Notes: generated by a model not told the origin, from the letters alone. A stretch of 16,422 nucleotides of DNA from a virus (IMGVR_UViG_2877285697_000001:1-16422); one strand, 5' to 3'; positions 4,409 to 9,694 are shown, counted from the stretch's first letter. Translations and numbers: made by a program.

Positions 4409-4472
4409 TGAGGTAGCCTGAGTTTAACGGACACTCCTTCCTGAAATAGAATGGCATCAGAAGGAGCTAATA

Positions 4473-4775
4473 ATGAGCAGAAAAACCCAACGTTACTCTA
4501 AAGAGTTCAAAGCCGAAGCTGTCAGAACGGTTCTTGAAAATCAACTTTCGATCAGTGAAGGCGCTTCCCGATTATCCCTTCCTGAAGGCACTTTAGGACA
4601 ATGGGTTACCGCCGCCAGAAAAGGGCTCGGTACTCCTGGTTCCCACACGGTGGCTGAACTGGAATCTGAAATTCTGCAACTGCGTAAGGCGTTAAATGAA
4701 GCTCGCCTTGAGCGAGATATATTAAAAAAAGCAACAGCGTATTTTGCACAGGAGTCGCTGAAAAATACGCGTTAA
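4473..4775 (+). CDS. IS600 OrfA
   Basis: 100-aa ORF; differs from the copy at 1-303 by one residue (H58 versus R58). Confidence 0.9.
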   Translation: MSRKTQRYSKEFKAEAVRTVLENQLSISEGASRLSLPEGTLGQWVTAARKGLGTPGSHTVAELESEILQLRKALNEARLERDILKKATAYFAQESLKNTR

Positions 4776-4810
4776 TCGAACAATGGCGACAACAATTTCC
4801 CATTGAAGCG

Positions 4811-5629
4811 ATGTGTCAGGTATTTGGTGTATCCAGGAGCGGTTATTACAACTGGGTACAGCATGAACCCTCAGACAGAAAACAAAGTGATGAGCGGCTA
4901 AAACTGGAGATTAAGGTGGCACATATCCGCACTCGCGAAACATATGGAACCCGGCGGCTCCAGACGGAGCTGGCAGAGAATGGCATCATCGTTGGTCGTG
5001 ACCGGCTGGCACGTCTTCGTAAGGAGCTAAGGCTACGCTGTAAGCAGAAACGCAAGTTCAGAGCGACTACGAACCCGAACCACAATCTGCCAGTTGCGCC
5101 AAATCTGCTGAACCAGACGTTCGCTCCTACAGCACCAAATCAGGTCTGGGTGGCGGACCTGACGTATGTTGCCACACAGGAGGGATGGTTGTACCTCGCT
5201 GGCATCAAAGATGTTTATACGTGCGAAATTGTCGGCTACGCCATGGGAGAGCGCATGACAAAAGAGCTGACAGGTAAAGCCCTGTTTATGGCGCTCAGGA
5301 GCCAGCGCCCACCTGCCGGGCTAATCCACCACTCTGATCGAGGTTCACAGTACTGCGCATACGATTACCGGGTCATACAGGAGCAGTCTGGTCTGAAAAC
5401 ATCAATGTCGCGTAAAGGTAACTGTTACGACAACGCTCCGATGGAAAGCTTCTGGGGAACGCTGAAAAATGAGAGCCTGAGCCACTATCGTTTTAATAAC
5501 CGGGATGAAGCCATCTCAGTAATACGGGAATACATTGAGATTTTCTACAATCGTCAGCGTCGTCACTCTCGTCTGGGGAATATCTCCCCGGCAGCCTTCA
5601 GGGAAAAATATCATCAGATGGCTGCTTAA
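4811..5629 (+). CDS. IS600 OrfB, DDE transposase catalytic subunit (made as OrfAB by -1 frameshift)
   Basis: 272-aa ORF with rve-type DDE motifs (...HSDRGSQY...NAPMESFWGTLK...), frame -1 relative to orfA. Confidence 0.9.
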   Translation: MCQVFGVSRSGYYNWVQHEPSDRKQSDERLKLEIKVAHIRTRETYGTRRLQTELAENGIIVGRDRLARLRKELRLRCKQKRKFRATTNPNHNLPVAPNLLNQTFAPTAPNQVWVADLTYVATQEGWLYLAGIKDVYTCEIVGYAMGERMTKELTGKALFMALRSQRPPAGLIHHSDRGSQYCAYDYRVIQEQSGLKTSMSRKGNCYDNAPMESFWGTLKNESLSHYRFNNRDEAISVIREYIEIFYNRQRRHSRLGNISPAAFREKYHQMAA

Positions 5630-5766
5630 AAAAAGAACAAATGGTAGTGTCCGCTATTGCCAGTACACCTCAACCGGTTACGACATCAACCAGGTCTTTG
5701 GTTTCATAACCGAGATATGTGTGTTTGAGAGCATCTTTGTAGTGGTCAACAAAAACTGGCCACCGA

Positions 5767-6586
5767 GTTAGAGTTTTTTCCAGTATCGATTTTCCGATTC
5801 GTTTGGTGGTAACCCACCATTATATTCGTGCGGTCTTAGTGCGCTGTAATATCCAACGATATAGTCCGTTATTGCGTGAGCTGCATCGCTGAAGCTTACA
5901 TAGCCCGTCGCCGGCACCTATTCGTTCTTCAGACTCCTGAAGAAGCGCTCCATTGGGCTGTTATCCCAGCAGTTTCCACGCCGACTCATACTCTGCCTGA
6001 TCCGGTATCTCCACAGTAACTGCCGGAACTGCCTGCTCGTATAATGACTGCCTTGATCGCTGTGGAACATCACCCCGACGGGCTTACCACGGGTTTCCCA
6101 TGCCATTTCCAGTGCTTTCATGGTAAGCCTGCTGTCCGGCGAGAACGACATGGCCCAGCCCACTGGTTTTCTTGCGAACAGGTCGAGAACAACGGCGAGG
6201 TACGCCCAGCGCTTACCCGTCCAGATATAGGTCACATCACCGCACCACACCTGATTTGGCTCGGTCACGGCGAACTGCCGTTCAAGGTAGTTAGGGATAG
6301 CAACATGTTCATGACCACCACGTTTATACCGGTAAGTCGGCTGCTGACAGCTGACCAGCCCCAGCTCTTTCATGAGTCTGCCAGCAAGCCAGCGCCCCAT
6401 CTGGTAGCCTCTCTGGGTTGCCATTGTGGCGATGCTTCTTGCTCCGGCAGAGCCGTGGCTGATGCCATGCAGTTCAAGTACCTGGCTGCGTAATACAGCC
6501 CGTCTGCCGTCTGGCTTTTCAGGACGGTTTTTCCAGTATTTGTAGCTGCTGCGATGGACCCCGAACACATGGCAGAGAGTGGCCAC
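5767..6586 (-). pseudogene. insO: IS911 OrfB transposase interrupted by an in-frame amber codon
   Basis: Track ORF 5918-6586 ends ...FFRSLKNE then TAG (complement of 5918-5920) where IS3-family OrfB has W; the frame continues [49 protein letters not shown] to TAA at 5767. Confidence 0.8.
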
Positions 6587-6612
6587 AGGATAACGCGCCC
6601 TGAGTTTCCCGA

Positions 6613-6915
6613 TTATCGAGAACTGTTCAGGGAGTCTGACATCAAGAGCGCGGTAGCCTTTTTTAATATTTCATTTTCCATTTCAATACGTTGTAGCTTT
6701 TTCCTGAGCTCACGGATTTCAATTTGTTCCGGGGTAATGGGGGAGGCTTTTGGTGTTTTTCCCTGCCGCTCATCACGTAATTGTTTCACCCATCGCGTCA
6801 TTGTGGAAAGGCCGACATCCATAGCGCTGGCTGCATCTGCCACGGTGTAATTCTGGTCAACGACCAGTTGAGCGGATTCGCGTTTAAACTCTGCGCTGAA
6901 ATTTCTTTTTTTCAT
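6613..6915 (-). CDS. insN: IS911 OrfA (100 aa)
   Basis: [51 protein letters not shown]...; start ATG (complement of 6913-6915) inside the longer track ORF. Confidence 0.9.
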
Positions 6916-6971
6916 TATGGCACCTGTGTTGTTCTGAGGTGAGCATATCACCTCTGTTCAGGTGGCCAAAT

Positions 6972-7749: not shown

Positions 7750-7775
7750 CTTCCGTCATCGCAGAATGACGGAAG
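7750..7775. other. Perfect 10-bp stem hairpin CTTCCGTCAT-cgcaga-ATGACGGAAG
   Basis: Exact inverted repeat 19 bp downstream of the stop of minus-strand gene 7794-8117; no T-run on either strand. Confidence 0.5.
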
Positions 7776-7793
7776 CCTTACTAACTGGCGCCT

Positions 7794-8117
7794 TTATTGA
7801 AACAGATTCTGAGGTAAATGCGGCAATACTCGACTCCACTTATCATCCTGCCACGGCTGAAGTTTTACATGTGCCGTTTCTCGGACGAGGATTGCTCGCG
7901 CTCTGTTGAGTATCTGGGGATATTCTTGCTCGATGGAAGTGAAGTGACCAGCTTCACCATGCTCCGCATCCTGAAGAAGATGAGTAACGTTCTGGTAGGC
8001 AATTAACATCACATTCCCTGCTCGCCATAACCAGGCGAGTGTGCAAAGTTCGTTATCAGTGAATTGTTTTGTGATTGGGGATTGTTGAACTGCTAGAACG
8101 AGAACGCCAGCATCCAT
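7794..8117 (-). CDS. Hypothetical protein (107 aa), no family recognised
   Basis: ATG (complement of 8115-8117) preceded by AGGGA Shine-Dalgarno on the minus strand; co-directional with flanking genes. Confidence 0.45.
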   Translation of the reverse strand: MDAGVLVLAVQQSPITKQFTDNELCTLAWLWRAGNVMLIAYQNVTHLLQDAEHGEAGHFTSIEQEYPQILNRARAILVRETAHVKLQPWQDDKWSRVLPHLPQNLFQ

Positions 8118-8228
8118 TGGCAGTCCCTATAGTAAAACCATAGCTCAGGACGCTTCGTTCAGGATAGATAATTTTATTGTACTTACCTAACTTTCTTACT
8201 ATAGCACGGTTGAAAAAGTGATTATTAC

Positions 8229-8832
8229 TCAAAAATAAACCTCACCATCAACCATATATTTGAGAGTACTTATCGCCTGCTGGGCGGATATTGTTTTCAT
8301 TAAAGGATAGTGTTTAAAAACAATGCCATTCATAAAATAGATATCACAGGTTTTATTATCTGTATTGATTATGATTTTTTCGAATGTTTTATAGGCAAGT
8401 GTACGACATAGCTCTCGCCCATTTTTACTGGTTAAGTCAATAGCATGAAAATCACCAAGTGAGCTCACCGCTTTACTCTTCAAAGTTTTTAATGATACAG
8501 AAGCCCTTCGTAATTCCTTATCTAATACTCTGATTTTTTCTGCTATAGCGGTAACTTCAGGCGCAACAGATAATGCAGCAATTAAATTATTAATTTTCAT
8601 ATGGAGCTCAATAATTTTCAACTCTAAAGTTTCATTAGCATCTTTCTTGTTTTCAACTGGTTGGATTTTACTACAATTAAAAAGCAACTCATTAATGATA
8701 TTATAATCAACCAAATCTCTCTTTATTGATGGCCTGCCACATCGATGCAGTCTTCTCATCGGACAAACATAATAGCCATGCAAACTTCCAGATACCGCCT
8801 GAACAATCATGGTATTACCACAAGCCTCGCAC
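8229..8832 (-). pseudogene. C-terminal fragment of a large serine recombinase (zinc beta-ribbon plus coiled-coil), N-terminal catalytic part replaced by IS1
   Basis: PCEACGNTMIVQAVSGSLHGYYVCPMRRLHRCGRP matches the recombinase zinc-ribbon pattern C-x2-C...YYxC...C, followed by coiled-coil-like LELKIIELHMKINNLIAAL...; frame is open into the IS1 end at 8833 with no ATG. Confidence 0.55.
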
Positions 8833-8887
8833 GGTAATGCTGCCAACTTACTGATTTAGTGTATGATGGTGATTTTAAGGTGCTTGC

Positions 8888-9163
8888 GTGGCTTCCATTT
8901 CCATCAGATGTCCTTCCTGCTCCGCTACTGAAGGCGTGGTGCGTAACGGCAAAAGCACTGCCGGACATCAGCGCTATCTCTGCTCTCATTGCCGTAAAAC
9001 ATGGCAACTACAGTTCACTTACACCGCCTCTCAGCCCGGTACGCACCAGAAAATCATTGATATGGCCATGAATGGCGTCGGATGTCGCGCCAGTGCACGC
9101 ATTATGGGCGTTGGCCTCAACACGGTTTTACGTCACTTAAAAAACTCAGGCCGCAGTCGGTAA
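8888..9163 (+). CDS. insA: IS1 InsA (91 aa)
   Basis: [66 protein letters not shown]... Confidence 0.95.
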
Positions 9164-9585
9164 CCTCGCGCATACAACCGGGCAGTGATGTGATTGTCTG
9201 CGCTGAAATGGACGAACAGTGGGGCTACGTCGGTGCTAAATCACGTCAGCGCTGGCTGTTTTACGCGTATGACAGGATACGGAGGACGGTTGTGGCGCAC
9301 GTCTTCGGTGAACGCACTCTGGCCACACTGGAGCGTCTTCTGAGCCTGCTGTCGGCCTTTGAGGTCGTGGTATGGATGACGGATGGCTGGCCGCTGTATG
9401 AATCACGCCTGAAGGGAAAGCTGCACGTTATCAGCAAGCGTTACACTCAGCGCATTGAGCGACATAATCTGAATCTGAGACAACATCTGGCAAGGCTGGG
9501 ACGGAAGTCACTGTCGTTCTCAAAATCGGTGGAGCTGCATGACAAGGTCATCGGGCATTATCTGAACATAAAACACTATCAGTAA
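9082..9585 (+). CDS. insB: IS1 InsB reading frame (expressed as InsAB' by frameshift)
   Basis: 167-aa ORF ...[65 protein letters not shown]. Confidence 0.9.
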
Positions 9586-9694
9586 GTTGGAGTCATTACC
9601 GAGAACGATTTATCACCGCAGTCGGGCTAAATCCGCTAGTCTGTTGGTATGTAAGTGGTTGCATAGTCATTGCCTTATCAGTTAACGCCGCAGT

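Follow-up and report, generated by a model that had tools for sequence, protein, structure and literature searches.

A decayed DLP12-family prophage in a Shigella chromosome with rearranged junctions at its insertion sequences

The stretch of viral DNA IMGVR_UViG_2877285697_000001:1-16422 (all 16,422 nucleotides of it are referred to here as the window) carries a lambdoid prophage that is interrupted by insertion sequences (ISs) of the IS600, IS911-like and IS1 types, and it is the junctions of these elements that are described here. The window is 100% identical to the chromosome CP026827.1 (assembly GCA_002949935.1) over 14,411 overlapping bases. The CP026827.1 record is a finished 4.56-Mb chromosome; the assembly is labelled Shigella dysenteriae, yet it clusters with an S. 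boydii group (PMC10501659, Table 2). The window is very probably a decayed DLP12-family lambdoid prophage in this Shigella chromosome, which has been rearranged by recombination at ISs. In the original prediction it was claimed that three of the ISs have unmatched flanks, and that this indicates IS-mediated rearrangement, either by recombination between copies or by adjacent deletions; this interpretation is supported for all three elements by the data described below.

The reference structures for the comparison are the IS-free prophages of Escherichia coli 442/2 (L001), NT1F10 (L003) and STEC384 (L004), where the L-numbers denote the stretches compared. The junctions were counted in a set of 5,426 complete E. 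coli genomes, and in no complete E. coli genome is more than 47% of the window covered in one place. The segments of the window, in order, are as follows.

1-367, minus strand: the 367 bp nearest IRL of a second, inverted IS600 that is truncated at the window start; its orfA corresponds to the open reading frame (ORF) 1-303, minus strand; the full copy is L005 5077-6340
368-370, no strand: GGT, half of a 3-bp duplication (ybcN codon 97), reverse complement of the ACC at 5673-5675
368-4408, plus strand: late-region block of the DLP12-family prophage, 4,041 bp, inverted relative to the rest
4406-4408, no strand: GAT (rrrD codon 127), presumed half of an rrrD duplication; the rrrD alignment ends at 4408, which is L001 1963
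4409-5672, plus strand: complete IS600 (IS3 family, 1,264 bp) with mixed flanks, rrrD on the left (GAT) and ybcN on the right (ACC)
5673-5737, minus strand: ybcN remnant, 65 bp (nt 227-291 of 456), including the ACC at 5673-5675; corresponds to L004 4001-4065
5738-6987, minus strand: IS911-like IS3-family element, 1,250 bp, at a 569-bp deletion; left flank CTT, right flank ACC, corresponding to L004 4065 and 4635
6988-8832, minus strand: early-right block of the DLP12-family prophage, 99.1% identical to L004 4635-6479 and L003 13073-14917
8833-9600, plus strand: IS1 (768 bp, IS1F-like variant) at a 4,067-bp deletion; left flank GCCTCGCAC, right flank GAGAACGAT
9601-15669, plus strand: immunity and early-left region of the same prophage, from a ydaT-like 5' stub to a traR/dksA-like gene cut by IS1
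15670-16422, plus strand: second IS1, a direct repeat of the first with 100% identity over 753 bp (self-blast), truncated at the window end

Every non-IS part of the window is carried contiguously by the prophages of 442/2, NT1F10 and STEC384, with 97-100% identity. The compared non-IS parts align at 93-100% with the prophages of 442/2 and STEC384, which adjoin tRNA-Arg (argU) and intD, and the gene order is colinear with that of these argU/intD prophages of the DLP12 family. The IS-free order starts with rzpD, rrrD, essD, porin, quuD, ylcG, rusA, ybcO, ninE, ybcN and a small ORF, after which 442/2 has ybcM-ybcL and NT1F10 and STEC384 have a 260-aa ORF and a P22AR-C gene. It continues with ybcK, ylcJ, emrE, ren, P, O, ydaT-like, cro-like, cI-like, kil, gam, bet and exo, and int is found at the end of this order in 442/2 and STEC384. 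In the original prediction three blocks had been distinguished (a DLP12-like late region, an orphan island and a lambda-like early-left region); these do not have separate origins, as they are contiguous parts of one DLP12-family prophage in STEC384, NT1F10 and 442/2. All the breakpoints in the window are inside ORFs and none is at a module boundary: rrrD codon 127, ybcN codon 97 and nt 226/227, nt 632 of the 260-aa ORF, ybcK nt 923/924 and ydaT nt 64.

The IS boundaries that had been assigned, 4409-5672 for IS600, 5738-6987 for the IS911-like element and 8833-9600 for IS1, are correct, as shown by reading the sequence and by the alignments to the IS-free relatives, which end exactly at these positions. 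Matching target-site duplications are indeed absent at these three elements, also when both IS boundaries are shifted by up to 4 bases. With these offsets there is no 3- or 4-bp flank repeat around IS600 and no 6-9-bp flank repeat around IS1, where the 8-9-bp duplication of a simple insertion is not present. For the IS911-like element, a single CTT repeat is found at offset +4, where about 1.3 chance matches are expected (81 tests, 1/64 each); its interpretation as a hidden duplication is rejected, as it contradicts the end of the element defined by two other copies and the count is at chance level. Unmatched 3-bp flanks by themselves are the chance expectation (63/64). The mismatch carries weight only because the two flanks of each pair are non-adjacent or inverted in the IS-free relatives, as is seen directly in the alignments. 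Comparison with such relatives had been suggested as a check, and it reveals a contiguous arrangement, in which these flanks are separated or inverted with respect to each other.

The complete IS600 has the ends TGAGGT... and ...ACCTCA, with the terminal TG...CA, and its imperfect terminal inverted repeats can be aligned. Its ORFs 4473-4775 (orfA) and 4811-5629 (orfB) are in the 0/-1 frame arrangement, with an A7G run at 4724-4731 as the A-rich slippery site. OrfB matches the NCBIfam IS3 family transposase with 334 bits (cutoff 160) over the full catalytic part, the Pfam families HTH_Tnp_1 and rve are matched in the IS600 ORFs, and E. coli copies that are 99.5% identical to this IS600 are annotated as "IS3-like element IS600 family transposase". 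The second, inverted IS600 at 1-367, which had been overlooked, holds the other half of the IS600 duplication. The sequence identity between window 1-367 and 4775-4409 is 99.7% (self-blast), and over all 1,264 positions the full inverted copy and the copy at 4409-5672 show 4 differences.

The split duplication becomes visible when the two sides of the complete IS600 are aligned with the IS-free prophages. Window 368-4408 matches L001 (442/2) 6003-1963 in reversed orientation, with 97.2% identity. In the comparison with STEC384, window 368-4369 matches L004 4003-1, reversed, and window 5673-5738 matches L004 4001-4066, forward, such that these two alignments overlap by exactly 3 bp, L004 4001-4003, which is ACC; the same pattern is obtained with 442/2. 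Without an IS, the ybcN site has the sequence GATATC-ACC-GGTTAC; window 368-387, read as its reverse complement, ends with ATCACC and the window from 5673 onward starts with ACCGGTTAC. The 3-bp target-site duplication of an IS600 is present across the two copies: its GGT half (368-370) and its ACC half (5673-5675) both lie directly against the end of an IS600. In this way two inverted copies of the same IS bracket a segment of 4,041 bp that is inverted relative to the IS-free prophages, and this arrangement of the sequence is the one predicted, as a textbook product, for homologous recombination between inverted IS copies. The original explanation of the unmatched IS600 flanks is in agreement with these data and points to an exchange between IS600 copies.

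The 65-bp segment 5673-5737, located between IS600 and the IS911-like element, does exist as originally described, but it is a fragment of ybcN and not an orphan. The database search that had been recommended for this segment matched ybcN, in 1,337 E. coli genomes and with at least 99% identity in 1,252 of these; among the matches listed, which include a K-12 MG1655 genome, the identity is 100%.

The inversion has a second end, in rrrD. The GAT at 4406-4408 is presumed to be one half of a duplication generated by an IS600 insertion in rrrD; its partner (expected to be ATC) was not found in the available sequence. Of the two pairs expected from such an inversion, the ybcN pair (GGT/ACC) is present; the rrrD pair (GAT/ATC) was not found, the inverted copy having GCG as its outer flank. 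This GCG comes from the glk-fryB intergenic spacer, and the genes beyond the inverted IS600 are nupC, mntH, ypeC, yfeO and glk. The sequence of this outer flank is exactly that of the spacer 3' of glk, which 5,425 of the 5,426 E. coli genomes have; in an IS-free genome this spacer runs on into fryB, the fryB side being ATTTGTTTTGCACG... A single ybcN/rrrD inversion would predict ATC and the 3' part of rrrD outside the inverted copy, where glk-fryB is found instead. A single local inversion as the whole history is therefore rejected, and this outer flank implies at least one further exchange with a third IS600.

Two inverted IS600 copies that bracket a 4-kb segment also resemble a composite transposon. 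However, the outer flanks, GCG and ACC, differ and do not form a direct repeat, such that this possibility is rejected; the pairing of the inner-left GGT with the outer-right ACC is the signature of an inversion and not of the transposition of a unit.

At the other two elements the flanks are colinear and in the same orientation in the IS-free prophages, with DNA missing in between, and here the rearrangements are losses of 569 bp and 4,067 bp when compared with these prophages, as had been suggested by the adjacent deletions of the original prediction. The flanks of the IS911-like element are colinear in STEC384, at the distance given above, and the 569 bp missing between them comprise ybcN nt 1-226, a 102-bp ORF, a spacer and the last 151 nt of the 260-aa ORF. 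The flanks of IS1 are L004 6479 and 10547, and identically NT1F10 (L003) 14917 and 18985; between them 4,067 bp have been lost, no duplication is present, and the lost DNA comprises ybcK nt 1-923, ylcJ, emrE, ren, P, O and the ydaT-like gene except for its first 64 nt. Contigs from two other isolates span window positions 6959-8860, so the junctions of the IS911-like element, the early-right block and IS1 also occur outside the CP026827.1 assembly.

The IS911-like element has a length of 1,250 bp, IS3-type ORFs and TG...CA ends. The earlier name, IS911, is only approximate, as copies in E. coli that are 99.8% identical to the window element are annotated by PGAP as ISEc52 family. Its OrfB covers only positions 104-327 of the 369-position IS3 model. 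The end of the element was placed at TGAAGTGG by the alignment of two copies. Some matches of this element seem to reach into the 65-bp flank; this possible extension is rejected as a selection bias of the coverage ranking, since the end is set by the two-copy alignment. When compared with two E. coli ISEc52 copies, the window copy differs at 3 of 1,250 positions, 2 of which are private: the change at 5919 converts a TGG codon of orfB into a TAG stop, and the change at 5740 is in the third base of one end (TGA to TGT). This copy is probably immobile. The two E. coli ISEc52 copies (L007, L008) also have unmatched 3-bp flanks (ATT and ATC, CTT and GCC), and both are annotated as frameshifted. 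Old, rearranged copies of the ISEc52 element may be common.

The first IS1 has the expected length of 768 bp, its inverted repeats can be aligned, and it matches the NCBIfam IS1 family with 89 bits (insA part) and 148 bits (insB part). It is a divergent IS1, being 99.4% identical to a copy annotated as IS1F family and about 91% identical to an IS1A copy. The second IS1, at the window end, cuts a traR/dksA-like gene. Beyond it, CP026827.1 continues with 719 bp that do not belong to the prophage, followed by a third IS1, which is inverted and has an altered end, and by a gene for a GntP-family permease (L010, reverse strand). The DNA past the second IS1 is not prophage DNA, and therefore the int/argU end of the prophage is missing from the locus.

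It is proposed that one IS600 was inserted in ybcN codon 97, making the 3-bp ACC duplication, and another, oriented the other way, in rrrD codon 127. These inverted copies would then have recombined homologously (RecA-type) and flipped the 4,041-bp block, leaving the IS600 at 4409-5672 flanked by rrrD and ybcN and the two ACC halves on different IS600 copies. At least one further exchange, with a third IS600, would have moved the glk-fryB side of the structure to its present position. The deletions at the IS911-like element and at the first IS1 would most likely have been generated by recombination between two copies in the same orientation; for IS1, intramolecular transposition into nearby DNA would be an alternative. 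The order in which these events are described is a suggestion only, and the enzymatic route of each exchange is, like the duplication in rrrD (GAT), inferred.

Several observations weigh against this scheme. Only one (ybcN) of the two expected duplication pairs is demonstrated, and the junction between the rrrD 3' part and IS600, with the predicted flank ATC, was not retrieved. The glk flank indicates a history that is more complex than a single inversion. The linkage across each 1.26-kb IS600 comes from the published assembly alone, as the short-read contigs of the other isolates stop at the IS ends. Finally, the sequence cannot separate recombination between IS copies from deletion or inversion driven by a transposase.

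It is possible, but rather unlikely, that direct intramolecular action of the transposases and not homologous recombination produced these structures, with an adjacent deletion, or an inversion together with a second inverted copy, being obtained depending on the orientation of the attack. The end products would be the same in sequence, namely a single IS without duplication at a deletion, and inverted copies with reverse-complement halves at an inversion. IS1 is a classic maker of adjacent deletions, and for the IS1 deletion a transposase-driven adjacent deletion is as possible as recombination. However, the IS3 family, as known from IS911 and IS3, moves by copy-out/paste-in transposition via a circular intermediate, which for IS600 and the IS911-like element gives neither inversions nor adjacent deletions. 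Because of this mode of transposition, homologous recombination is the likely route for the IS3-family elements. The two IS600 copies also differ at the 4 positions mentioned above, and a single intramolecular event cannot make an outer flank that is glk-fryB and not rrrD.

An assembly artefact, in which the wrong flanks were joined across the near-identical IS600 copies such that the inversion of 368-4408 is unreal, is much less likely still. The block has IS600 IRL ends on both sides, its orientation depends only on the linkage across two 1.26-kb repeats with four differences, and independent short-read contigs end at the IS boundaries, which would all be compatible with such an error. Nevertheless, the chromosome is finished, and the four differences between the copies let long reads phase them. 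The other linkage would still leave an IS600 that joins glk-fryB to rrrD, and the deletions at the IS911-like element and at IS1 have flanks of unique DNA that are also seen in contigs of other isolates.

That the blocks were never contiguous, being mosaic modules with ISs at the module borders and duplications lost by mutation, is hardly credible: lambdoid prophages are mosaic, as is also seen from the ybcL-ybcM genes of 442/2 at the place of the 260-aa ORF and P22AR-C gene of the window and STEC384, and in E. coli 67-1 part of the late block is inverted, without an IS and between other breakpoints. Against this, single IS-free prophages match all flanks in the window at 97-100% and carry them contiguously, the breakpoints are inside ORFs, and the duplicated 3-bp ACC coincides exactly with the ends of IS600.

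Recombination at ISs in a prophage that was once contiguous is the preferred explanation. The genes of the inverted late block and of the early-right block, as identified by gene calls and Pfam families, are the following.

368-535: ybcN codons 97-151, in the inverted late block
535-705: ninE, in the inverted late block
698-988: ybcO, in the inverted late block
985-1347: rusA, in the inverted late block
1344-1484: ylcG, in the inverted late block
1570-1953: quuD, in the inverted late block
2142-3224, minus strand: nmpC/ompC-type porin gene, in the inverted late block
3813-4028: essD, in the inverted late block
4028-4408: rrrD codons 1-127, in the inverted late block
6988-7619: 260-aa ORF, cut at nt 632, in the early-right block
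7794-8117: P22AR C-terminal-domain gene (Pfam P22_AR_C), in the early-right block
8229-8832: ybcK recombinase gene, C-terminal 201 codons, in the early-right block

In STEC384 and NT1F10 the early-right block stands between ybcN and ylcJ/emrE. The gene set and order of the late block are as in DLP12 of E. coli K-12 (argU-linked; intD ... ybcK ybcL ybcM ybcN ninE ybcO rusA ylcG quuD nmpC essD rrrD rzpD), and the window element is, like DLP12, defective. Unlike DLP12, the closest IS-free relatives, STEC384 and NT1F10, have the 260-aa ORF and the P22AR-C gene instead of ybcL-ybcM, and their immunity and early-left region, which includes cI, kil, gam, bet and exo, is fuller. A further contrast to DLP12 is that the late block of the window is inverted and severed from the rrrD 3' part and rzpD, and that the int/argU end is missing. 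The porin ORF at 2142-3224 is intact in the window and encodes 360 aa; the nmpC of the K-12 DLP12 is interrupted by IS5.

The region 9601-15669 contains the ydaT-like stub, cro-like and cI-like genes, a three-gene module, kil, gam, bet, exo and small genes; its part 9601-15056 matches L001 (442/2) 12999-18453, forward, with 98.9% identity. The three-gene module (10845-12367) is located between the cI-like repressor gene and kil. It encodes a 136-aa ORF without a family match, an antitoxin of the MqsA family (Pfam, 63.9 bits) and a protein with a weak similarity to SecB, at 16.5 bits and thus under the cutoff, the counterpart of which in E. coli 442/2 is named SecB by PGAP. The layout of this module resembles that of a toxin-antitoxin-chaperone system.

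Another inversion of this prophage type is seen in E. coli 67-1 (L002 3046-6940), TW11681 and others, in which ylcG-quuD-porin-essD-rrrD is inverted with respect to ninE-ybcN; no IS is annotated at the junction, where an almost complete rrrD meets a truncated gene with a nuclease domain. The prophage type is the same as in the window, but the rearrangement seems to have arisen independently. The possibility that the window inversion was inherited from the 67-1/TW11681 arrangement is rejected, since the breakpoints differ: in that arrangement ninE and ybcN are not inverted and the junction is near rrrD nt 492.

In several STEC genomes IS600 is likewise located in or beside lysozyme genes of the rrrD type, at positions other than that of the window. 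A contig of GCA_026683615.1 (L006 2511-3121) stops at the same rrrD base as the late block of the window; its prophage is only 96.4% identical and has a different upstream gene. This identical stop, together with the insertions in the STEC genomes, may reflect an insertion hot spot. As a speculation to which little credence is given, the 4-kb block ninE-ybcO-rusA-ylcG-quuD-porin-essD might flip back and forth as a recombinational switch that connects and disconnects the Q antiterminator, the porin and the lysis module; separately, and with as little credence, rrrD-type lysozyme genes might be a preferred target of IS600.

The IS600/ybcN junction is found in 0 of the 5,426 complete E. coli genomes. 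For the rrrD/IS600 junction there is no exact match among the matches listed; in five genomes at least 80% of the query is matched, but always in two pieces whose spacing is not the same, and these are therefore different insertion sites. For the IS1 in ybcK, only nearby, non-identical insertions were found in the complete E. coli genomes.

Shigella genomes have expanded populations of IS1 and IS3-family elements and high rates of rearrangement (PMC8072062). The window resembles the IS-mediated inversions and deletions described there, in which IS1 and IS3-family copies act as portable homology, giving hybrid flanks, inversions, deletions, gene loss and prophage remnants. Nothing in the window is different in kind; it concerns one specific locus in CP026827.1, and the finding is an ordinary example of a process that has been well described, in a genome that was already public, with little significance beyond correct annotation. 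For this annotation, the pieces of rrrD, ybcN, ybcK and the ydaT-like gene are best treated as pseudogene fragments. The prophage is dead, as it has lost, or has been separated from, the replication genes O and P, the N-terminal 307 codons of the YbcK recombinase, the rrrD 3' part and the int end. The DLP12-type DNA now abuts the glk region, which implies that chromosome-scale IS600 exchanges have occurred. The locus can serve as a worked example in which a duplication lacks one half at a given IS because another copy of that IS carries it, and in which the rearrangement is reconstructed by finding this half.

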